Source: a virus
Lineage: Duplodnaviria > Caudoviricetes
Direction: 5' to 3' (one strand)
IMG/VR virus record: IMGVR_UViG_2645727545_000002
Span: 1-64,000 of that record
Length of the DNA: 64,000 nucleotides
Within the stretch, counting starts at the first letter, position 1; each line of letters opens with the position of its first letter. Position numbers and translations under genes: made by a program. Positions 3,134 to 62,720 of the stretch are shown in pieces. The notes beneath the pieces are model-generated. The model worked only from the letters and a program-made list of their open reading frames with translations. It made no database searches and was not told where the DNA came from.

Positions 3134-3409
3134 TCAATACTCCTCATAAAATGTTTCTTCGCTTATTTTCTTTTTATTATTCGCCTCTGCGGCAAGAACT
3201 TTATCTAACGCTTGTTTGCGATCGTGGAACACAACCTCTCCAAAATCAGAATAACTAAATAAATAAGCATGTTTGTCTACTTTGTCACATCCAACAAAAT
3301 AATCTTCTTTTACTGTTCTGATTTTGAGTTGACATACATCGAATATGCCAACTCTAGGAATGATTCTTGCATAATACAGAACATCTTTTACATTTACTGA
3401 TTCTCCCAT
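3134..3409 (-). CDS. Hypothetical phage protein
   Basis: 91-aa ORF overlapping the nrdG stop. Confidence 0.6.
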   Translation of the reverse strand: MGESVNVKDVLYYARIIPRVGIFDVCQLKIRTVKEDYFVGCDKVDKHAYLFSYSDFGEVVFHDRKQALDKVLAAEANNKKKISEETFYEEY

Positions 3410-3999: not shown

Positions 4000-6437
4000 T
4001 TACATACTCTTTCTGTCTGCAATTTCAGCCATCTTTGCATCATTCAATCTTGTATCTCCATGAACTCTTGAATACGACAGATATCCATTCATTCTTTCAA
4101 TCTTTGTTAAATCGCTACTTCCACAATTCGGACAAATATCCATATTTAATTCTTCATGACCACAATTATTACAGTATGCGAGCGAAAGATTTACTCCTTC
4201 ATAAAATCCCATTGACATTGCACGTCTTACAAGTGTTTTAATTGCATCGTGATTATATCCAATCGGATATTTACAATATTGAATGCGTCCACCCTCAATA
4301 TAATTCCAAAATCTATGTTCTAAATCCTGTTTTTGAATCGGAGTAATATCTTCCCAAACACCACAATGAAAACTGTTGCTTACATATTCTCTATCTGATA
4401 CTCCTGGAATAATTCCATATTTCTTACGGAACTGTTTTACCTGAAGCCCGCAGAGATTTTCTGCCGGTGTACCATAAATTGCATACAACCAACCATCTTC
4501 TTTTTTGAATTCCTTAACCTTTGCATCGATATATTTTAGTGTTTCTAATGCGAATTCACCATCTTCTACAAGTGATTTTCCATTGTATAACTGCTGCAGT
4601 TCATTTAGTGCTGTAATTCCAAAGGATGCTGTCATAGGTTTTAAAAGTGGTTTGATCTTGTCTGATGGATTTAAATGTCCTCCTAGAAAACCTCCTTCGC
4701 AATACCCAAGCGGATTTGTGGATGCTTTCATCTCTCCCAAATAATCATAGGTTCTCTGATGCAACTTACGGATCATTTCCAAATAGTAATCAAGAACTTC
4801 ATAAAAATCTTTATTTTCTTGTCTTGCTTTTGCAAGAATCATAGGAAGATGCAATGATACTGCGCCAATATTGAATCTTGATACAAAGATTGGCTCATCA
4901 TTTTCATCTTTTGGCTCCATTCCTCCTCGTTCATACCAAGGAGAAAGAAATGCTCTACACGTATTAATCGATTGTCACCAATCGTACTGACTAACTTTTC
5001 CCTCTGAAGCGTCCTAATCTTCATCAACAGGCGGTATCTTTGGAAACAGTGCTTATCTCTGTTTCTACGACGTTACACTCATCACGTCTAGTCGATTGAC
5101 CTTATATATAAGGCACAGCTTCATCTATAGTGCAAACGATCTCTCTCCTATAGACCTATCTGTTAGCAATTCAAATGAATCACACCCACCAAGCAAGTGG
5201 TTTAATACCGTTTTACATGGGCTGATTTGCACTTACCCATAGGACTAATAACTTTTCCATATTTATGGTACATTTTAGACACTGTTGTATCTCCATCTAA
5301 ACTTAACCAATCAGGATACATTGTTTTCGCGGAAGTTTTAATACCTTCTTCGAATAAATCTTCGTTTACTTTTCCTTTTCCGTGTAATTCTTCTGTATAA
5401 AGGAATACAAGTTTTGGAAACAACACAGGCTTTTTATTGCCATCCTTTCCTTGTCCTTCTCTATGAACTCTGAGAAAAGTTTTTGAAGCCATTTTAGCGA
5501 ATGGATCTGTTCCCAACCCAAATGTAATGGTGATAAATGGATAATCTCCTCGGCTGGAAGAGACAGTATTAAACTTGTATTCAAGTCCCTGATAACCTTG
5601 TTCCATATCACGTTCTACTTTTTTCATAGCGTAGTCATTAGATTTCTGTTCAAAATCTGAATGTCTATAATCCAGTAAGTTATCTGCAATATCATAAAAT
5701 TCATGTTTATATTTTTCATAACTTTTTTTAGCATATGGTACTAATACTTCATCAATCTGAGGAAGTGTAAATCCACCATACTCTTGACTCGCAGCACTTA
5801 ATGTAATATCTCCGATTACATCAAATGCTGTATCTAGTGTTTTAGGCTCGTTATACCATACATTTCCCATTTCAAATCCACCACGCATTACTTCTGCGAC
5901 ATCAAAAAGGCAGCAGTTCATCGTATCTCTTCTTGCAGACATATCATGAATATAGATATACCCATCATTAACAGCTTGTCTTTCTTCTACTGTTAAGAAG
6001 AATTTCTTATATAGCTGTTTATTCAATTCATTTAATACAAGACTTCGCTTTGTAGATACGAGAGCACTATCAGTGTTACTGTTTTCCTTATCCCCGATGT
6101 ACATAATTTTCTGACTCTCTTCGTATACCGTATCCATCATATGTACAAAATCAAGTTTATAATTACGATATTGCTGATACTGATACCCTATTTTGGGAAA
6201 CAAATCACGAAGTGTTTTCTCTACAATATTATGAATAAAGCCTACAGGAACTTCATCATTTTCAAAATCTTCTTCATCAATCTCATTAATGACTCTGTTA
6301 CAAATCATTCCGTACTCATCTTGTGAAAATGTAAAATTTTCTCTCTGAGCAGATTTATTGATGGCATTAATAATCTTCTGCTCGTTATACTTTTCCAATG
6401 TTCCGTCCTTCTTAATTACTTTCATCAAATACATCAT
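4000..6437 (-). CDS. nrdD: Class III ribonucleotide reductase, two exons (6437-5235 and 4959-4000)
   Basis: N-terminal ATP cone, YIHD, NCC; spliced junction ISPMG|CRAFLSPW; C-terminal CxxC..CxxC and glycyl-radical loop RMNGYL. Confidence 0.95.
4960..5234 (-). ncRNA. Group I intron (275 nt, no homing endonuclease ORF)
   Basis: 5' exon ends in U (ATGGGT) pairing with IGS GCCCAT; R-like GGTCAATCGACTAG and S-like AAAAGTTAGTC form P7; terminal G; removal restores in-frame MGCR. Confidence 0.9.
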
Positions 6438-11139: not shown

Positions 11140-11972
11140 TCAATCATCCTTCGTTTTCTGAATTTTATATGCGTTTAATGTATTTTGCATTAATGCCAAT
11201 CTTGTGAGTAATCCTACCCCGCCGGGTACCGGTGTAACATATGTACCGCTCAGATATTCTTCAAATGAGCAACAATTTATATCACCACACAATTTATTGT
11301 CTTTAATTCTATTAATTCCGATATCTACAATAAGTTCACAATATTCAAAAAAATCTGAAAAATCAAAATAGTGCGGAATTCCAATTGCAGAAAAACATAA
11401 TCTGCATTTCTAGTGTAGTATTCTGTGCTCGGAGTCGTACTATTGCAGCATGTAACTGTTGCTCCTTTTTCGATTAGCATATTGGTCAATGGAAGCCCAA
11501 CAATTTTACTTCTTCCAAGAACGCAACAGTCCTTTCCTTTAAACTCGAAATTGTTATATTCCATCCAGTCAATGATTCCTTTTGGCGTACATGGTTTGAA
11601 ACAACTGTCTCTTCTAAATCCATCGACATCTTTTTCTGGAGGAATCAAATGTTGTAATCGATCTAAATCATATTTATCAGGAATTGGAAGTTGAATAATA
11701 ATTCCATCCGCATCAGAATTTACAATAACTTTAATAATACCTTCGACCTCCTTCTGTTCTGCTATATTGGAATGAATATTTACATGACGCATTTCTATTC
11801 CAATCTCATCACAATCTTTTTGTTTCCCTTTGATGTAAGAGTTTGATGCCTGATCATTGTCAATCTGTATTACAGCAAGCACAGGCTTTCTATTGAAATG
11901 TCGGATCTCTTCTTTTAATTCTTTCTTTTTAATCTCTACATAATCTTTGCACGATACAATATCTGTTCTCAT
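11140..11972 (-). CDS. folD: Methylene-THF dehydrogenase/cyclohydrolase; frameshift near 11395
   Basis: YIKGK, IQLP, KDVDG, PCTP, GRSKIVGLP; shifted frame continues VDIGIN..LCGD..TPVPGGVG. Confidence 0.92.
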
Positions 11973-53128: not shown

Positions 53129-53580
53129 TCCACCTCCAACAGCTCTGGATTGTCAAAAATGTTTCCGTTAACTTCCGTTCTATTTGGATTCCGATTATAT
53201 TTAAAAACATCGTTATTGGTGCATTTTTTATTTCCTCGTCCACATACTGCCCATGATCCCCTCCATTCGCTCCAAAACACAGCACCTGCACGATATTTTA
53301 TCTCTTCGCCATCTTTTAAAAACGGACTTCCATCATAGTCATAGCTATATCTAAGAATATCATTCTCCCAGATCTTCTTACCATTCTTGTCGGTAAGTCC
53401 TGTGTATTGGCAGAGGGTGTCAGGATCAATCAAGTCATTAAATATATTAGTTCCGTTACAAATCAGATGTTTTATCGGCTTGCCATCTTCTGTTAGTGGA
53501 TTGGTAATATATACGTACTGACCTTCTACCCATTCACCGTTATCTTTTCTCTTTGCTTTAAAAAGGATTTCTCTACTCAT
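53125..53580 (-). CDS. YopX-family protein
   Basis: REILFKAK, QYTGL.DKNGKKIWENDI, GNIFDNPELL. Confidence 0.92.
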   Translation of the reverse strand: MSREILFKAKRKDNGEWVEGQYVYITNPLTEDGKPIKHLICNGTNIFNDLIDPDTLCQYTGLTDKNGKKIWENDILRYSYDYDGSPFLKDGEEIKYRAGAVFWSEWRGSWAVCGRGNKKCTNNDVFKYNRNPNRTEVNGNIFDNPELLEVE

Positions 53581-53736
53581 CTTCCTTTCCTCTGTTCTGT
53601 CGCATCTGCTCTATGTAAATATTTGTGGCGCATCTTACAATCTCTGATTTCACTCCATCGTAAACAGTTCCTTGTATAAAATGTTTGTCACACGATCTTT
53701 TAATCATGTATAGGATATCTTCAAATGCCTGTTCTT

Positions 53737-53925
53737 TCATTCTTCCACTCTCCTATTCCACATTCCCCTAGCCGTAGCTTCTAAAGCACAATTTCGTGTT
53801 GCAACTCCGCATTCTTTGCAGTACACAAAAGTTGATATAACTTTTCCATCAAATCCGTAATTGATTTTCAGCATTGCTTCTCCACCACAAAATGGGCATT
53901 TCTTTAATTCTTCCATGTTACTCAC
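53737..53925 (-). CDS. Lar-family restriction alleviation protein
   Basis: LKKCPFCGG...C..CG...WNRR. Confidence 0.8.
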   Translation of the reverse strand: MSNMEELKKCPFCGGEAMLKINYGFDGKVISTFVYCKECGVATRNCALEATARGMWNRRVEE

Positions 53926-54259
53926 TCCAATCTAATCTCTGTCCACAATGATTGCAGCAATCAGAATCCCAATAACAAAACATTTCTATATCTGCCATAT
54001 TTCCAAACAGTCTTTTGCATCTAGGACACGACGCTTGTCCATTCCAGTTTTCTACTTTTTTCGGCAACTGCTTTTCCAGTGCTTTGATTGCTGTTTCATA
54101 CAACCCAATTGCCAAATCCAATGTTTCATTATGTACAGGATTGCAATATTCATCGTATTCTTTTTGTGCATCTAATGTGCGAATTTTTCTTTGCAGAAAC
54201 TCTATCGCTTCTTTAACTTTCTTTTCGTCCACTTTCTGCACCCTTTCTAACCCTAACAA
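53918..54259 (-). CDS. Zn-ribbon phage protein
   Basis: ALEKQLPKK..CPRC...C.HCGQRLDW. Confidence 0.7.
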   Translation of the reverse strand: MLGLERVQKVDEKKVKEAIEFLQRKIRTLDAQKEYDEYCNPVHNETLDLAIGLYETAIKALEKQLPKKVENWNGQASCPRCKRLFGNMADIEMFCYWDSDCCNHCGQRLDWSE

Positions 54260-54410
54260 CCTCTTTGTCTGTCTCTTTTACTACTCTTCCACTTGCACAT
54301 TTCACACATTTTATTCTCCAACCGCCATTGTGTCTTTCAAAGTGTCCAAATCCAGGTTCTATCCATTGACCACAACAATAACAACGCCCTGCATATTTAT
54401 TTCTTGCCAT
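54213..54410 (-). CDS. Small Zn-finger protein
   Basis: RNKYAGRCYCCG...C..C. Confidence 0.6.
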   Translation of the reverse strand: MARNKYAGRCYCCGQWIEPGFGHFERHNGGWRIKCVKCASGRVVKETDKEVVRVRKGAESGRKES

Positions 54411-54476
54411 CTTCCATCACCAAAATCCCTTCATCAATCAAATTATTTACTGTTTTCAACAAGTCTTCCTGTACTT

Positions 54477-54794
54477 TTAAATCATTTTCGTGCTCGATAT
54501 CTTCAGATCTAAAAACTTGTTAAATTTATAAGTACTCATTCCTCCCAAACAATTACAATAAACACGAATTCTACTATTGTAATATGGCTTATCATATATA
54601 CCTATCCAAAACTCGTTATCAGTGCCGTACTGTATATCTTTATCAGTCCCAACCGTTCCACTAATACACCATGCATTGATAACATTATTTCTCCAAAATA
54701 AAGGTTCCTTAATTTGGGACTCATCACCAACTTTGAGTTTTTTAATTTTCTTCATTGTTAAGTTGTATTTATTTTCTACTTTAGTTTTCCTCAT
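54477..54794 (-). CDS. Hypothetical phage protein (3' frameshift likely)
   Basis: 105-aa ORF. Confidence 0.55.
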   Translation of the reverse strand: MRKTKVENKYNLTMKKIKKLKVGDESQIKEPLFWRNNVINAWCISGTVGTDKDIQYGTDNEFWIGIYDKPYYNSRIRVYCNCLGGMSTYKFNKFLDLKISSTKMI

Positions 54795-54941
54795 TGCTTT
54801 TCCCTATTCGTAGGTTTCCCACCTAACAAATTTCCGTCTTCGTCTCTGTCATATTTCCATATCAAATAATCACACCAATTATCATTGTTAAAATCGCTCA
54901 TGTTGTAAAACGGATCTGGATTATCTATAACATATTCTTTT

Positions 54942-55343
54942 TCAAATTCCTTTAATTTTCACATTTACATCATCTACAATGATTCTTTTCGATAATCTAC
55001 AAATCCACTTCACAAATTCTTTAAAAGTTTCTTCAAACCATCTATCGCGCAATGCAGCGTCTACTACGAGGATATATTCATCTTGCATTTGTAACGATCC
55101 TCGTTTTCGACTTCTGTCTCCAAATCTATCTCTTAAGTTATTTGTTCTCTCAAGAAATTCGTCAGAAAAACTTGAACAATTATGTCCTCTTTTTTGAATC
55201 ACATATACTTCCATATCTCTTTCTGACCCTGTTACGACAGGAAGATGATCGAGTACGGTTTCAAGAATATATCTCTTTTCATGTTGTGTCCTACCTAGAG
55301 GAGAAACAACAATTGTTCCATGTACATATGTCCAACTGCTCAT
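54942..55343 (-). CDS. Hypothetical phage protein (3' frameshift likely)
   Basis: 133-aa ORF, RBS GAGG. Confidence 0.6.
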   Translation of the reverse strand: MSSWTYVHGTIVVSPLGRTQHEKRYILETVLDHLPVVTGSERDMEVYVIQKRGHNCSSFSDEFLERTNNLRDRFGDRSRKRGSLQMQDEYILVVDAALRDRWFEETFKEFVKWICRLSKRIIVDDVNVKIKGI

Positions 55344-55590
55344 TTGATTTACCTCTTTTAATATTAATCACATCGGTATTTACAATCTTATATCACATGC
55401 AGCTCACAAACATTTTCAAATAGCGACAAATGAAATAGTTTGTTGAATCAACGTTTACAGTTTCTAAATATTTGATTTACTTTAGGTGATATTTGATTAT
55501 AAACACCAATGAAAAATCATATGCAGAACTTTATGTATCTTATTTTATTGGAGTCATGAAACATGTATAGGAAATTGTTCCGCATATGAA

Positions 55591-55661
55591 TTATGGATAA
55601 AGGATTTGAACCTTTTCTAATGCGTCACGCTTCATCGTGCTACCAGTTACACTAATCCACA
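55591..55661 (-). ncRNA. tRNA-like RNA or pseudo-tRNA with aberrant anticodon arm
   Basis: Acceptor TGTGGAT/ATCCATA; D arm GTGT-AACTGGTA-GCAC; T arm AAAGG-TTCAAAT-CCTTT; no canonical 5-bp stem/7-nt loop anticodon arm. Confidence 0.6.
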
Positions 55662-55817
55662 ACTTTTAGGATGGAAAATAGGTCATCACCACTTAAGAGA
55701 CATGTTTACACCATAAAAATTTTATTATTAAGGAAATTAAAACAAATATGAATATCAAAAAATTAACAAGAAAAGACTATGCAGCAAAGATGAATCTTAA
55801 ATTAGTAATGACCTAAA

Positions 55818-55889
55818 TGGATCATTCGGGACTTGAACCCGAACCGATCGGTTATGAGCCGATTGCGCTCACCATTGCGCCAATGATCC
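55818..55889 (-). tRNA. tRNA with CAT anticodon, most likely tRNA-Ile2; no encoded CCA
   Basis: GGATCAT/ATGATCC acceptor, GCGC D stem, ATCGG-CTCATAA-CCGAT, TCGGG-TTCAAGT-CCCGA; lacks the initiator GGG/CCC stem. Confidence 0.9.
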
Positions 55890-55921
55890 TTATTCTGTGC
55901 CACTCGTAGCAGCACAAATTT

Positions 55922-56104
55922 TTAATTGAAACTTCTATAAAAATCTCCTGTTTTATCAATGCTCCTACAAACCATAGATTCGATTTCTCGTTTCATTTCT
56001 TCGCCACATTCCGGACACATATGTCCTTCTCCAACGTATTCCTTCATCGACATCGTAATAACTTCTTTGTGTCCACATTTTGGACATTGAAATGGATATT
56101 TCAT
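55922..56104 (-). CDS. FmdB-like Zn-ribbon protein
   Basis: Y.F.CPKCG...CPECG. Confidence 0.7.
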   Translation of the reverse strand: MKYPFQCPKCGHKEVITMSMKEYVGEGHMCPECGEEMKREIESMVCRSIDKTGDFYRSFN

Positions 56105-56109
56105 ATTAT

Positions 56110-56562
56110 TTATTTCTCCTTTTCACTCTCAAGTTCTTTTAATTGTTTCACAAGCTCTCCCAAAGTTTCGTTATCTGAATACTGTTTTACCATATTTTCA
56201 TAATACTCAATGTTTTTCCTTTTTGAGATTTCCTTATCAATTTTCTTTTTAATTTTACGTTTGAGTTTTTCGATATTATTAATACGCTCTTCCTCTTTAT
56301 GTCTTTTGGCATATGCATCCATATTCACAACACCAACAACCTGCGCAGTAGGCTTCTTACCGTATTCTTCTAAAGATACTATATCTTTTACTTCTCCCAA
56401 TACTCTTCTTTCTTTTCCACATGCATTAACAACCACAAGTGTATTTTTAAAATTTGCTGTTCTGAGTAACTCAAACTCTTCCTTATATAAAGCAAAACCA
56501 TAATCTTTATTGTTCCAATCTTCTAACAAGTTTACAATTGCTACTAAATCATATCCTGTCAT
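56110..56562 (-). CDS. Hypothetical phage protein
   Basis: 150 aa with coiled-coil C-terminus. Confidence 0.65.
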   Translation of the reverse strand: MTGYDLVAIVNLLEDWNNKDYGFALYKEEFELLRTANFKNTLVVVNACGKERRVLGEVKDIVSLEEYGKKPTAQVVGVVNMDAYAKRHKEEERINNIEKLKRKIKKKIDKEISKRKNIEYYENMVKQYSDNETLGELVKQLKELESEKEK

Positions 56563-56577
56563 TGTTTATTTCTCCTT

Positions 56578-57210
56578 TTATTTTAATAATGCTTTGTCAA
56601 TAATTTGAAAGTTAGCTCTATGTATATACAATGCTTTTCCATCAATCATTAGCTTTGTCATTTTAGGTAGATCATTCGGAATCTCCCAATATACTTCTTC
56701 TCCTGAGTATGCTGTAATAGGTTGTCCAAGCTGTGATTTAATAACGACCACCCGCGACTTCCCAAACATATTTTTGTATTTATTTACAAACTCAGCAACG
56801 AATGTATTATCAGAAAATGAACCATCTGTCATACTTTTAATTCTCTCTTCGATAAAATCAACTTCGCTATTTAGTCCATCCTGTACAAAAATACAAGTAT
56901 CTCCGCAACTTTCAATTTCTTTACCGTCAATTGTAATTGTAATTACAGATGATAAATCATAATTAGTGGATATAGATCCATCACTGCTGTAACTCGTAGT
57001 CTCCACTTTGATCCCAGAAATATTGATTTTGTCTCCTGATGTTTCTAGCACCTTTGAACCATAATTATCATATGTATTAATACGATATCCATTTCCAATC
57101 AATGAACCTTTGATATCGTTAAATTCCGATTCCAACATTGCACATCCAGATAGAGCTGTAATAAAGCAACTCATTGTTACTATAGTTACAATTTTCTTAA
57201 TTTTTCTCAT
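56578..57210 (-). CDS. Lipoprotein (DUF5052-like)
   Basis: Basic N-terminus, hydrophobic core, lipobox LSGC. Confidence 0.7.
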   Translation of the reverse strand: MRKIKKIVTIVTMSCFITALSGCAMLESEFNDIKGSLIGNGYRINTYDNYGSKVLETSGDKINISGIKVETTSYSSDGSISTNYDLSSVITITIDGKEIESCGDTCIFVQDGLNSEVDFIEERIKSMTDGSFSDNTFVAEFVNKYKNMFGKSRVVVIKSQLGQPITAYSGEEVYWEIPNDLPKMTKLMIDGKALYIHRANFQIIDKALLK

Positions 57211-57308
57211 TCATCTATTCTCCTTCAAATTTTTATATGCCATATATAGTATTTAAACAAGTTGCAAACTACTATATATTGTGCTAAATTCCGAATGAAA
57301 TCGAGATT

Positions 57309-58348
57309 TTAACTTGATAATATCTCATCTATCATCTTATCCATCTCATATGTAAATTTGACACAATTACCATGTGAAATATGATTCTTCCAAGATTCAT
57401 AAGATTCTAGGAATTTTCCTTTTGATAACTTATTCTCTTTTACCATCTTTGCCATTTTTCGATATTTTCTTTTTCGCTTTTTCTCTTTTTTTCATTTGTA
57501 AGTTTTCTAATTACTTTTCCATCTTTTGTGACATATGTATGAAAACCACAAAATTTAATTCCGTTTTTAAAAGGTATAATCTGAGTTTTGCCGTTCAATT
57601 CAAGATTTAGTGTGTTTACAAAATCTTCTATTGCACACAAACAATATTTTGCATATTGCTTTGATTCCACAATTAAATAGAAATCATCCATGTATCTTCC
57701 ATAATATTTGACACCCAACTCTCCAGTTATAAAATGATCAAAACCAGACAAATATAATAAAGCAAATACCTGACTAACTTGATTTCCAAGAGGCAAGCCA
57801 TTTCCGCTTGTGCTATCAATAAATTTTTCACATAACCAGTACGTATCTGGATTAGATATAAAATATAAAACAATATCTTTCAGAATATTATGATCAATAT
57901 TATAGAAAAATTTTTTAATATCACCTTTAATAATCCAACAATCATATCCGTATTTCTGATATGCTAAATACATTTGATATTTCAGACAATCCAAACCAAA
58001 CAATGTTCCTTTTCCTATTTGTCCGGCATAATTCGTATATATAAATTCATTACTTAAAATAGGAAGAAGCACATTATCACATAAACTGTGCTGCACAATT
58101 TTGTCTTTAAAACTTCCTGCTTCTATAATTCTCTCTTTCGGTTCATATACTTTAAATCTGTTATATCTATCTACTTCATATTGCTTTGATTCTAAAAGTT
58201 TCTTAATTTGATAAATTCCATCAAGAGCAGATAATTCAAATTTAATTCTACTTTTCGTAAAACCTTTGCCACTTTTTGAATCTCTGTATGCTTTATATAA
58301 ATTTTCAAAATCAATAATCTTATCAAAAACTGTGCTATCTTTTATCAT
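57309..58348 (-). CDS. DGR reverse transcriptase (3' frameshift near 57470-57490)
   Basis: EPKERII, GKGT, KGDIKKFF, GLPLGNQVSQ, RYMDD, FCG; shifted frame continues to SWKNHISHGN...EILSS*. Confidence 0.95.
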
Positions 58349-58465
58349 GATATATTTTACCTTTGTATTTATCCTGTCTAGTAAAAGACAGGAAAGGTTG
58401 TTTGCTCTTTTGATATCGGGACTCTAATTTCAGCGTTTCTCTTACTTTATTTCGTCTTCCGACCC

Positions 58466-58549
58466 AAAACGGACGAACTCCATAATCGTTCCAATTGCAA
58501 TCGTTGTAGTTCACGTTACCATTACTGTTAACAATCTGAACATAGGAAG
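58466..58549 (-). repeat. DGR template repeat (TR), 84 bp
   Basis: AAC/AAT-rich copy of the VR, between avd and RT. Confidence 0.95.
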
Positions 58550-58574
58550 TCATATAGCAAACAACCGTTAAGAA

Positions 58575-58928
58575 TCATCTTGTTTTATCTTTGTTTCTCC
58601 AGGCTATTGTCATATATTTAATATCACATATCTTCTTCTGCCAATGTTCAACTGTATCAGATCCTATAAGATTTAGATTCATTGACAATTCAACATAACA
58701 AGATAATTTATCACATGAAGAAATAGATCTAGTTTGCAAATCTAATCTCTTCTGTTTTTCTGCATTTATTTGTATTCTATTTGCGCTCATCAGGAAATCA
58801 TATATATTCATACATTCATTCTGAATTCTTTCTATAAGCGTTTTGTATTTTGCCGGATATCTCTTTTTATTCGCTGTCACGGAATATGTATATTGCATTA
58901 AGTCGATAGCTTTTGTAATAACTTCCAT
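58575..58928 (-). CDS. avd: DGR accessory protein (Avd-like four-helix bundle)
   Basis: 117-aa basic helical protein (YP..Y..L..RI, AN, W) between target and TR; ATG at 58928 after GGAGTG. Confidence 0.85.
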   Translation of the reverse strand: MEVITKAIDLMQYTYSVTANKKRYPAKYKTLIERIQNECMNIYDFLMSANRIQINAEKQKRLDLQTRSISSCDKLSCYVELSMNLNLIGSDTVEHWQKKICDIKYMTIAWRNKDKTR

Positions 58929-58973
58929 ATAAATCACTCCAATCTTGCTGAGTTTTGCTCTTCGAATACTTAC

Positions 58974-58995
58974 GAACAACGCTTACGCATTGTTC
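58974..58995 (-). promoter_or_regulatory. Hairpin downstream of the VR (candidate DGR target-recognition element)
   Basis: GAACAATGC-GTAA-GCGTTGTTC: 9-bp stem with one G-T pair, 4-nt loop. Confidence 0.6.
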
Positions 58996-59037
58996 TGTCT
59001 TCATCTCCACAAAACGTTATCGACAAGATAAACAGAT

Positions 59038-59802
59038 TTAAGATTCGGTGATAAAAAACGGACGAACCCCAAAATCGTCCCAACTGCAAACGCTGCAGTC
59101 CACGTCACCACTACTGCCAACAAACTGAACATAGGAAGAATCTTTTCTTGATTTCGTCTGATTTGGAGTTGACAGCCAGTGTGGATAATTGATTAGTGGA
59201 AGTTTTTCACCACATTTTCTGAATAAATCAAAAGTCGGAATAGACAATACATCATCTTTTACAACACCATAATCATTAAATCCATCCATACTAAGCAAGT
59301 TATTTTCAACTGGAGTAATACTATTTCCATATTTACATTTAATGTCTTTTGCAAGCTTGCACTCTTTAAGATATTTTCTTACAGAAGATTCTGCGTAATT
59401 ATTATTGCTGCCAAAACTCATCCTCGTAAGAACTCCATACATAAAATGATATATCTTTCCATCCATTCGAATGTTTGTCCAATAATATCCAAATTCCTCT
59501 TTAAAGTGCTTGTTCATAAAATCTTTAACGGATTCTCTAAATTCATCTTCATATCTCTCTGGATCGTTACTATACCATTCTGGTACAATATCCTGATCGA
59601 CTTTATAAGTCCACTTTGAAATATCAGAAGTGATAACATATTTCTCTGGCGGAATTAATTCTGCTCTCACAAATTTCTTAGAAGCATTAAATTCATTATC
59701 TTCTATATCCAATTTTTCAAGCAAACTTGAATGACTTTCATTCTCTAAGGGTGCAAGTTCCACCCTATTCTTAAAAATAATTCCACTTTTAAACTCACAC
59801 AT
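59038..59802 (-). CDS. DGR target protein, C-terminal CLec/DUF6273-like domain
   Basis: NNYAESSVR..L, WLSTP, C-terminal VR ending GVRPF. Confidence 0.9.
   Translation of the reverse strand: MCEFKSGIIFKNRVELAPLENESHSSLLEKLDIEDNEFNASKKFVRAELIPPEKYVITSDISKWTYKVDQDIVPEWYSNDPERYEDEFRESVKDFMNKHFKEEFGYYWTNIRMDGKIYHFMYGVLTRMSFGSNNNYAESSVRKYLKECKLAKDIKCKYGNSITPVENNLLSMDGFNDYGVVKDDVLSIPTFDLFRKCGEKLPLINYPHWLSTPNQTKSRKDSSYVQFVGSSGDVDCSVCSWDDFGVRPFFITES
59055..59138 (-). repeat. DGR variable repeat (VR), 84 bp
   Basis: 13 differences from the TR, all at TR adenines. Confidence 0.95.
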
Positions 59803-59825
59803 AATTTATTTCTCCTTTTCCTTAT

Positions 59826-60419
59826 TTAGACAATTTCAATTTCTTCTCCAATCAGTTCTTCTAACTTTTCGCGCATTTCTTCCACTGTCATTTTCTTTGG
59901 TTCTTTGCGCTCCCAGATGAGTTCGAGGTTATCATCATCCATAATATGTTCGAAGTTTCTTTCATTTTTAATCTTATACACTCTGATGATGCTAAGTTGG
60001 CTTTTTGCATATCCTTGTGTTAAGTCATTCTCGTAGGCTTCGAGTCTATGGCTCCCCTCTTCTCCAATTAGCATATTTCCAACCACCATTCTCTTTCCAT
60101 AGTCCTTGCATCTGTATTCCACCACCATTCCGTCTTTTAGATCTGACTTTGTAAATTCTTTCTGCATGTAATCACTCCATTCCAGGATTTTATACCCTTT
60201 GCTTTTATAGTACTGATACGGCGAAAACTCTCCTCTGATATAGCACATTTCTTCTTCGCAGAATTTGTAATTTGTCTCTTTCAGGTAGCTTTCGCCTGAA
60301 CACCACTTCATTCCTTGCTTATGCATTTTTTCGCAAAAGTCTTTCGCTTCCTCTTCTGTCTTGCAGTGTACTGCAATCTTATTGTCTGTATCCTTAAATT
60401 CGTCCCAGTTAAATCTCAT
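59826..60419 (-). CDS. Hypothetical phage protein
   Basis: 197 aa; VHCKTEEEA, KSDLKDGMVV and WER motifs of Firmicute phage proteins. Confidence 0.7.
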   Translation of the reverse strand: MRFNWDEFKDTDNKIAVHCKTEEEAKDFCEKMHKQGMKWCSGESYLKETNYKFCEEEMCYIRGEFSPYQYYKSKGYKILEWSDYMQKEFTKSDLKDGMVVEYRCKDYGKRMVVGNMLIGEEGSHRLEAYENDLTQGYAKSQLSIIRVYKIKNERNFEHIMDDDNLELIWERKEPKKMTVEEMREKLEELIGEEIEIV

Positions 60420-60610
60420 CTTTTTTTACCTCATTCTTCCTCTTTTATATATTTTGCTACAAACATCAATGCCCCAACTCCTAATACAAACCCGTAGAAA
60501 AATGCCTCTTCTCCAAGTTCATATAATCTGGCACCGGCTAAACAGGATGTAATCAACCCACCAATTGACATTATGTTCCAAAAAGTTTTCTCCATATGTA
60601 ATTCACCACC

Positions 60611-62074
60611 TTATCCTACAAGTTCATACTTGTTCCTTAAAAATTCACCAATATCATTTACCATGTATGTATAATTTTCTTTTTGATCTTTAATATATGT
60701 AGAATTTCTGTTAAAGAAACTTACCATCCACTCCGGAATTTCTAAATCTATGTTTGTTTCAAAGCTGTACGCAACAACAGCAAGTAAAGAATTCATGTTT
60801 TCAGGTTCAAGAAGTTTCGATGAGTTATCAACCTCTACTGTCCAGTCATCTAACTGAATTTTATATAATTCGATGTCTTCATCAATCACATCTTCTTTAA
60901 CATTTTCTTTGATAAATTCAAGAGCGTTCTGGTCTGAAGAAGCATTATCTATTACATTATTCTCTCCCACTTCGACAAGACATTCTTCATCTTCTTTAAT
61001 ATGTAAATACTCTTTCATGAGAGCAGTTAAGATGTTAATTTTCTCTTTTAAAATAGCCTTACCTTTTGTATGACGATCCTCATTTAATTTGTCAAATGTT
61101 ACTCCATTTACATCTTTTTTATATAAAGACTTTTCAAATTCTTCTACAAAATCCTTAAACTTAATATCATCTAATCCAAATTTAGCAAACTCTTTAAACA
61201 CAGGGATCCAAACAATAACATTTTTTGGCACAAACACTTCTGTGAAATTATCTTTGCACACAGATTCAATCCTGCTAAAATATTCATTTACAGTATCAAA
61301 GTGTTCTTCCGTTGCGTTCTCATTTAGATATTTGCTCATGTTCTTTATTGCACTTTTCCAGTTATCAAAGAAAAACGTTGTCATGACAGATTCACATACA
61401 AGTCTTTCTCTAATACCTTTCGATTGCTGCTTACCGGAACAAGACATACAATTTTTAAAGAATTTATTTTTCTCAGATATTGTCCTTATTTTTCTTGCAT
61501 GTAAATCAATATAAGTAAATGCTTTCTGAGATGTATTCATTCCCAAATGATTGTTGTATCTTCTCACCAATTTACTAATCTGTGACATCGTACAATGCTG
61601 ATGTATTGTAATGTCAATCTGATAATCATCAAACATTTTTTTCAATTCTGGCGGTAACATTTCATATGTTTTTCTTCTCAAATCATATTCAACAGATTCC
61701 CAAATAACTTTTCCGTATTCATCTTTACAGATTTTATTATTTTCATCTTTCTTTTTTCTCTGATATTGGATAATCGGATCTTCTAAAGTAGCTGTAATTT
61801 TATAGTTTTCATGCTTAAATTTAACCAACGCAGAACTTCTTTGCATTCCATCAACAATGTATTGCTGCACAACGTCTTCGTCCAAATCTTCTTCTCCTAA
61901 GATAATTGGTGGAATATAATCATCAGTTAATACAGTTTTGATTAACTCATTCACCATTCCATTTTCCCAACAAAACAGTCTTTGAACGTCCTGATTATCA
62001 CTAATATCTTCTTCCACAATCTTCTCTAAATAAGAATCTAGCGATAATGTCTTTTTTCTAATTTTCTTTGCCAT
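60611..62074 (-). CDS. DUF262/ParB-like domain protein
   Basis: QR.F.W, IPPIIL, IVDGMQR. Confidence 0.75.
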   Translation of the reverse strand: MAKKIRKKTLSLDSYLEKIVEEDISDNQDVQRLFCWENGMVNELIKTVLTDDYIPPIILGEEDLDEDVVQQYIVDGMQRSSALVKFKHENYKITATLEDPIIQYQRKKKDENNKICKDEYGKVIWESVEYDLRRKTYEMLPPELKKMFDDYQIDITIHQHCTMSQISKLVRRYNNHLGMNTSQKAFTYIDLHARKIRTISEKNKFFKNCMSCSGKQQSKGIRERLVCESVMTTFFFDNWKSAIKNMSKYLNENATEEHFDTVNEYFSRIESVCKDNFTEVFVPKNVIVWIPVFKEFAKFGLDDIKFKDFVEEFEKSLYKKDVNGVTFDKLNEDRHTKGKAILKEKINILTALMKEYLHIKEDEECLVEVGENNVIDNASSDQNALEFIKENVKEDVIDEDIELYKIQLDDWTVEVDNSSKLLEPENMNSLLAVVAYSFETNIDLEIPEWMVSFFNRNSTYIKDQKENYTYMVNDIGEFLRNKYELVG

Positions 62075-62094
62075 GATTATATTCCTCCAATTTT

Positions 62095-62720
62095 TTATTC
62101 GCACAATAACACTTTTACATTTTCATAAAGACGCATAGTCCCAAGTATATTGTCTTTATATTCTCTTTCTGTTATGTTTAATTCTTCAATAATTTCATCT
62201 TGAGTGTATCCATCGCATATGAGATCGACCGCCTTTTGTTGCTTATAAGATAAATTGCTCTTATACATTTCAATTTTATCTGTTGTGGGGTGAAGTCTAT
62301 TTATAATTTCCCCTTCTAAATTAAATCCAGAAGAAATGCCTTCTTCCAACGTGTAATCTTCATCTGGATCAACTTTCATATGTATGGATATATCTGGAAT
62401 AACTATAGGATTTCCGTCCTTATCTCTCATAATTTTTCCTTTACTATCTGTTACAAGATTACATCTTTTAAACCTTATACAATCTCTTTTCCACGTTTCT
62501 TTTCTTCTTACAAGGTTTCCATAGAAATATGTACTAAATTTACAGTTTTTCGACTCATCATATGTATCCATACTCTTCAGAAGAATATCGACAGCTTTAT
62601 CATAATAATCATCCAATACATTTTCGGGATATTTGTTTTGGAAATGATTTTGTCGCATATTTTACGAATTTTTTTCATATCATTTCCGATATAGTCTTCG
62701 AGAATTTTATTCTTGTCCAT
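62095..62720 (-). CDS. Phage sigma-70-like factor (5' frameshift)
   Basis: YDESKNCKFSTYF (region 2) and LSYKQQ...GYTQDEI (region 4); true start MDKNKIL at 62720. Confidence 0.7.

Follow-up and report, generated by a model that had tools for sequence, protein, structure and literature searches.

One template repeat and two lectin-fold targets: a diversity-generating retroelement in a phage very probably of gut Lachnospiraceae

On the minus strand of a virus record of 136,328 bp (IMG/VR IMGVR_UViG_2645727545_000002; 81% complete), of which bases 1–64000 form the window analysed here, lies a diversity-generating retroelement (DGR) that is clearly active in the phage lineage to which the record belongs. 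Its parts follow one another, all on the minus strand, in the order target gene, hairpin, avd, template repeat (TR), spacer and reverse transcriptase (RT). Target gene 1 is an open reading frame (ORF) for 254 amino acids (59038–59802), and the first variable repeat, VR1 (59055–59138), encodes its residues 222–250. A 3′ recognition region like that termed initiation of mutagenic homing (IMH) in known DGRs occupies 59024–59067, and is followed by the hairpin 3′ of VR1 (58974–58995). The gene for the accessory variability determinant, avd, encodes 119 amino acids (58575–58934). The TR (58466–58549) has 84 nts, with 23 adenines and 7 AAY codons, and a spacer of 117 nts (Sp; 58349–58465) separates it from the RT, which starts at 58348. 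The frame-0 part of the RT runs from there to 57440, its C-terminal part is in the −1 frame (57309–57491), and the two meet in an A-rich tract where the frame is broken (57465–57491). This gene order had been given in an earlier note made from the sequence alone, and it stands. The DGR had been termed complete there. Indeed no part is missing, though the ORF of the RT has a break in this record.

Relatives were gathered by a scan of viral contigs, which yielded 534 related loci (denoted by L numbers below). In the close set, of 21 records, the cassette shares 96–99.9% identity with the window when the VR is set aside. Against the GenBank phage collection, a distant blastn search with the cassette gave no match.

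The TR and VR1 align over 84 nts without a gap and differ at 13 positions, all 13 of them TR adenines (10 A to G and 3 A to T). The coordinates, the alignment and the peptide readings of both repeats in the earlier note were reproduced without change. The hypergeometric chance that 13 of 13 mismatches fall on the 23 adenines among 84 positions is 1.8e-9. All but one of the 13 changes are in codon position 1 or 2. Mutagenesis of the adenines in the TR cannot create a stop codon, and its computed potential is about 7e13 DNA variants and 1.1e13 peptide variants. A third copy of the TR sequence, VR2, is at 77623–77706 of the record, beyond the window and 18.5 kb away. It departs from the TR at 14 positions, again exclusively at TR adenines (14/14), and the set is different from that of VR1. 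VR2 is at the 3′ end of the gene for a 213-amino acid paralogue that has 36% identity to target 1 and matches DUF6273 with an E value of 0.001. Exactly these three copies, TR, VR1 and VR2, were present in all five relatives tested.

It is the comparison with the relatives that reveals how the repeats behave. The TR is invariant in the 21 near-identical relatives, the sole departure being position 83 of this record itself. VR1, by contrast with its template, has 19 distinct alleles among 22 records. It differs from the TR 335 times in all, and TR adenines account for 331 of these differences; every one of the 23 adenine columns varies, as do only 3 of the 61 non-adenine columns. For VR2, the six alleles available are all distinct, and 92 of 93 differences are at TR adenines, so that for the 28 alleles of both repeats together the count is 423 of 428. 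The population signature of mutagenic retrohoming is thus present on both targets. Ongoing diversification is shown here between records of the lineage. The earlier note spoke of past activity, which with an invariant TR and hypervariable VR1 and VR2 turns out to be an understatement. The finding that it named as speaking against current activity, an invariant VR in populations, is not what the 22 records show for VR1.

The departure at position 83 of the TR (window 58467, minus strand) is a T in this record and a C in all 21 close relatives. The TR end accordingly reads ..CCGTTTT here and ..CCGTTCT in those relatives, and the identity of TR and VR is 2 bases longer in this record. The T could be a real change or an error.

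A more distant arrangement with two targets is found in loci L049–L084, which are phage contigs mostly of about 40–60 kb with an RT about 60% identical. There, two targets of about 200 amino acids with coiled-coil-like N-termini are adjacent and one TR serves both. These loci are without the hairpin at the offset described below, and avd begins soon after the VR.

The RT matches RVT_1 with an E value of 4.7e-14, and it has the motifs that had been pointed out before, LGNQVSQ and YMDD. Among solved structures, the closest relative is 8ub7_A, an RT of 328 amino acids (E 3.7e-33). Retron and group II RTs follow at 2e-9 or weaker, some 24 orders of magnitude behind. We take 8ub7 to be the RT of Bordetella phage BPP-1 (bRT), from the cryo-EM series on bRT-Avd-RNA, though the search tool does not say so.

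The protein encoded next to the TR is a very divergent Avd. It is matched by NCBIfam DivGenRetAVD (E 1.1e-8) and by Pfam bAvd (E 4.1e-5), and 12 of 13 orthologues from relatives match DivGenRetAVD, the best with an E value of 9e-13. The single Avd sequence gave only noise against the PDB. The spacer is predicted to be a conserved structured RNA. With 13 relatives, RNAalifold yields a fold of 25 pairs, and compensatory changes are seen in 14 of these. In one helix the 3′ end of the TR pairs with a segment of the spacer, and there the changes are one-sided only. A spacer hairpin is nested in CCTTT...AAAGG and overlaps the RT ribosome-binding site. Rfam models matched two tRNAs in the window and nothing else, the spacer included.

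The 3′ ends of TR and VR are asymmetric in the manner of IMH in the VR and IMH* in the TR. Both repeats have the shared end GTTCGTCCGTTTT and then diverge, as the earlier note had remarked; the TR runs on into the unrelated sequence GGGTCGGAAG. In the targets, what comes after the shared end, GTTCGTCCGTT(TT), is a stretch that the TR lacks, in which ATCT occurs three times at intervals of about 8 nts. This stretch is unchanged across relatives (invariant columns T14 C15 T16, A20–T23 and A28–T31). It is kept as DNA after both VR1 and VR2, with target 1 stopping inside it and target 2 reading through.

Further 3′ is the hairpin. That of VR1, GAACAATGC / GTAA / GCGTTGTTC, has a 9-bp stem including one G-T pair, and it starts 62 nts past the point where TR-VR homology, scored in relatives, ends (..CCGTT). 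At the same +62 offset, VR2 has an 8-bp stem, GGAACAGC / TTTTT / GCTGTTCC. Relatives have unrelated stems at this offset: GGCGCTGC in L027, GGCGTAGGGA in L028, GGCATGGC in L029 and GGAATGC in L032. Among relatives of 75% RT identity the stems are unrelated and the position of the hairpin is fixed. Alignment with MAFFT lost the register of the stems, and the hairpin was judged instead by position and by shuffle counts. For seven perfect stems, shuffles of the single sequence matched the observed stem in 1–8% of trials. With such odds for each stem, the argument for the hairpin rests on the common offset across independent stems.

What the VR varies is, on a predicted model, the tip of a C-type lectin fold. 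The AlphaFold2 model of residues 100–254 of target 1 (pLDDT 87.4) has this fold, of a DUF6273-like type, with the VR at the 3′ end of the ORF. The top structural match, the N-domain of a Thomasclavelia IgA peptidase (9qa6_A, Z 12.9), fits the DUF6273 type. Legionella Lcl (8q4e, Z 8.6) and the DGR variable protein TvpA (2y3c, Z 7.5) also match, as do dozens of animal C-type lectin domains. No significant Pfam match was obtained for this copy of target 1. The DUF6273 (PF19789) scores are 14.6 bits for target 1 and 19.4 bits for target 2, with a cut-off of 23.5, and the homologues P0046 and P0085 exceed it with 26.4 and 29.3 bits. Neither target has a signal peptide or a transmembrane segment (the maximum KD19 hydrophobicity of target 1 is 0.54).

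Residues 1–99 of target 1 (window 59506–59802, minus strand) constitute a separate N-terminal domain with a near-invariant Cys2. Its family comprises 1,654 clusters at 50% identity, and among the 150 best hits there are only a handful in which the domain does not start at or near residue 1. The proteins with this domain range from 70 to 445 amino acids, and their C-terminal parts are varied and unannotated; ten of the longer members have no Pfam matches. Structural searches with the domain gave, in the ESM Atlas, scores of at most 0.87 and only to fragments of its own family, and in a wide VIA-align search no Z above 5.0, a value no better than noise, with no clear PDB match.

The cassette and both targets are in one long leftward block that extends from about 83 kb to 1.5 kb. 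The block encodes a ligase, exonuclease V/helicase, a DNA polymerase, a DnaB-type helicase, NrdD, a sliding-clamp-like protein and many proteins without assigned function. When 20 of the larger ORFs were scanned against PHROGs, a structural family was the best match for none. The sole structural match was a secondary one, to terminase large subunit, on a Sak4-like ORF. Since the record is only 81% complete, a structural module may be missing from it. Both targets appear to be non-structural. A speculative and, in our estimate, rather improbable extension of this is that both are early products with their place of action inside the infected cell, a hypervariable set of lectin-fold binders directed not against cell-surface receptors but against defence proteins of the host, other intracellular ligands or ligands of competitor phages. 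In that case, the N-terminal module would serve as a shared adaptor linking such binders with an effector or partner.

Relatives extend to 160–166 kb and one of them is classed as a provirus. Homologues of the RT and targets, at 72–77% identity, are found in Lachnospiraceae genomes, among them Lachnospiraceae bacterium 6_1_37FAA and A4, Roseburia sp. and Eubacterium plexicaudatum ASF492. As part of the reading favoured below, the carrier would be an SPbeta-like temperate phage of gut Lachnospiraceae with a genome of roughly 165 kb.

An RT of the DGR clade, an Avd, adenine-specific differences between TR and VR, a VR on the tip of a lectin fold, an IMH-like 3′ end and a downstream hairpin occur together here. 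The element is with high confidence a genuine DGR of a gut Lachnospiraceae phage with two small lectin-fold targets, and with an RT break that is most likely an artefact. By analogy with the BPP-1 prototype, its working may be pictured as follows. The cassette, from target 1 through avd, TR and spacer to the RT, would be transcribed within the long leftward block of genes for DNA metabolism and accessory functions. RT and Avd would associate with the structured TR-spacer RNA and make a cDNA of the TR, with random bases inserted opposite adenines. The cDNA would replace either VR1, which adjoins the cassette, or VR2 at its distance of 18.5 kb. Homing would be guided by the shared GC-rich 3′ end, the target-only stretch of ATCT repeats and the hairpin about 60 nts downstream. 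Rewriting would affect 15 of the 16 adenine-bearing codons (the 7 AAY codons among them) on the C-type lectin fold's exposed tip, and its products would be two small soluble paralogues with about 1e13 possible peptides.

Several points weigh against this reading. Both Avd matches are below the curated cut-offs, and a PDB search with a profile of the Avd orthologues failed to retrieve bAvd. Published phage DGR hairpins have 7–10-bp stems and GRNA loops and lie 4–34 bp from the VR (PMC3240598), whereas the hairpin here is about 60 nts from the end of homology and the loops GTAA, TTTTT, GTA and AAAA do not all fit the GRNA consensus. Also, the break in the RT could be a real and very recent inactivation. 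That break bears on the activity of this copy and not on the identity of the element, and is considered next.

A problem with the frame at the 3′ end of the RT had been suspected earlier, and rightly so. A stop at 57440 ends frame 0 after 302 codons (roughly the first 290 being authentic), and the final 60 codons (57312–57491) are in the −1 frame. The last 48 residues of the −1-frame part, from MAKM onward, are identical to the intact RT of relatives, and the detached tail otherwise has 100% identity to it. In place of the two frames of this record, 14 relatives at 99% identity have one uninterrupted frame of 345 amino acids. A single frame of 344–345 amino acids is also what all the relatives at 60–87% identity have. 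Compared with the 14 relatives, the record has two extra A's in the A-rich tract, 14 nts apart: A4 has become A5 near 57482 and A3 has become A4 near 57468.

The likeliest cause is an assembly error comprising two homopolymer miscalls, and we consider this probable because other homopolymer frameshifts hit essential genes of the same record. Single-base indels are present in T-rich homopolymer runs at 11395, 19616, 20263 and 20373, and they split at least three ORFs that are intact in 2–5 relatives. Several of the replication genes match only parts of their profiles. This suggests that the record has systematic homopolymer errors.

Other lesions of the RT occur in the lineage. In L005 there is a different one-base loss in the same A-tract. 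In L021–L026, six near-identical relatives, the 3′ end of the RT is replaced, from locus position 4745 (RT nucleotide 744), by a TnpB-type gene split over two ORFs, with matches to OrfB_IS605 (E 3.9e-13) and to the Cas12f1-like TNB domain (E 8.8e-21). The remainder of the RT was not found within 4 kb downstream. Several different VR1 alleles are still present in L021–L026 despite the replacement. L005 and L025 have the same VR1 allele (locus 3211–3294), which includes one non-adenine change, despite their different RT lesions; the VR has apparently not been rewritten since their divergence.

A real frameshift would make the element a recently inactivated DGR, with VR1 and VR2 as frozen fossils of earlier activity. 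To this we give a minor but appreciable chance. In the sequence as given, two insertions do cut the RT short ahead of the thumb region, RT loss is natural in the lineage (the TnpB-type replacement and the one-base loss in L005), and the record has its unique T for C at TR position 83. However, neither VR in this record has acquired a non-adenine change and the detached RT tail is without further mutations, from which it follows that any inactivation would have to be very recent. The many further homopolymer frameshifts in essential genes would be impossible in a viable phage and are to be expected from an error-prone assembly.

Far less probable is that full-length RT is made from the two frames by programmed −1 ribosomal frameshifting or transcriptional slippage at A AAA AAG (57485–57491). 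The idea was attractive on account of the heptamer, a perfect X XXY YYZ in frame 0 directly after the −1-frame stop and before the 0-frame stop, where a −1 slip would yield an RT of 346 amino acids. One earlier proposal of a DGR RT that depends on a frameshift concerns Quimbyvirus, whose RT is in three frames (PMC8008677). The idea was nevertheless dropped for the present RT when the frame was compared in 80 relatives. The two-frame arrangement is not conserved, all relatives having one frame except L005 with its different lesion. The heptamer itself is missing in L020 and in more distant relatives, and the break consists of two separate single-A insertions 14 nts apart and not of an evolved overlap. 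Least credible of all is that the likeness of TR and VR reflects ordinary paralogy or gene conversion between repeated gene fragments with no retrohoming, for which only the existence of three 84-nt repeats speaks and which is refuted by a pattern that is adenine-only and one-directional, since in 28 alleles the differences are limited to adenines of one copy, and that copy is non-coding in its context between avd and a DGR-clade RT and never varies.

The DGR, with its RT break taken as the probable artefact, has much in common with that of BPP-1 (mtd-avd-TR-brt). The gene order, the adenine-specific transfer from TR to VR and the placing of the VR on a C-type lectin fold, at its C-terminal tip, are alike. 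So are the 3′ end, GC-rich and shared, with sequence beyond it that only the target has (IMH versus IMH*) and the hairpin 3′ of the VR (PMC3240598), as well as the structured spacer between TR and RT and an RT with I/LGxxxSQ and YMDD (PMC3240598; bioRxiv 10.1101/2023.10.23.563531). Unlike BPP-1, there are two targets here, one of them 18.5 kb off, and they are small soluble proteins encoded amid genes for DNA metabolism and accessory functions, where BPP-1 has a tail-fibre tip protein. Some 60 nts separate the hairpin from the end of homology and its loops vary, the TR has 84 nts versus 134, and Avd is very divergent.

DGRs are common in gut phages (PMC8144416), and the kind with two targets is already described. 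One TR serves two DUF6273 targets in the Faecalibacterium phage Toutatisvirus FP_Toutatis, where the second is 17,480 nts from the TR (bioRxiv 10.1101/2024.10.15.618418), and also in gut phages nd4 and nd12 (Baykov et al. 2023, PMC10743442). These too are phages of gut Firmicutes with the VR at the end of a DUF6273 domain (C-type-lectin-like), and their small single-domain ‘target 2’ resembles both targets here. Their other target has Ig-like domains (tentaclin or Hoc-like) and is by the tail genes, whereas neither target here has Ig-like domains, target 1 has its N-terminal domain of about 100 residues, and both genes are in the replication and accessory arm. A distal second VR near defence or counter-defence genes is known from Quimbyvirus (Benler et al. 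2021, PMC8008677) and from four induced gut prophages (PMC12629997). These share with the present DGR a second, distal VR in a non-structural gene, but they infect Bacteroidota and one of their targets stays in the tail module. The RT of Quimbyvirus is spread over three frames; the frame break here is not common to the relatives and is probably an error. The variable-domain fold is also like that of Treponema denticola TvpA and the C-terminal domain of Legionella Lcl (the Z scores of 7.5 and 8.6 given above), which differ in being cellular surface proteins with secretion signals and have 12–13% sequence identity to the target here. What is new is modest: two targets that are both apparently non-structural, the N-terminal module, the fixed +62 hairpin with the ATCT stretch, and the covarying spacer RNA.

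With one invariant template, two targets and many alleles already sequenced, this is a clean natural case for study, and lysogens of close relatives are present in Lachnospiraceae culture collections. It could be used to study the ligands of non-structural DGR targets in gut phages, the way in which a remote VR is located (the ATCT stretch and the hairpin at fixed offset being the features in question) and the role of the conserved spacer RNA. For annotation, and as long as no reads show the contrary, the RT break and several other gene breaks of the record are best regarded as homopolymer errors.

Some features of the neighbourhood may be added. Directly downstream of the RT is a DUF5052 lipoprotein gene (56578–57210, minus strand; E 7e-76, lipobox LSGC), and the content of this slot differs among relatives. 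The accessory arm also has two tRNA genes (55591–55661 and 55818–55889, minus strand), at a distance of 1.5 kb downstream from the DGR. The nrdD gene (4000–6437, minus strand) is in two ORFs that match profile positions 3–395 and 401–711 of 718 and are about 280 nts apart. The gap between them had no Rfam group I intron match at the gathering threshold, and the split may be due to an intron, an intein remnant or an error.

It was also considered whether the DGR cassette alone is unusually conserved or selectively transferred. This was dropped, as the whole accessory arm is a mosaic and the pattern is not specific to the DGR. In comparisons of 53500–62350 with L007 and L017, blocks of about 100% identity alternate with patches of 64–84%, for example at 59.95–60.6 kb and 55.3–56.6 kb, and the replication genes of L007 and L017 are only 80–87% identical.

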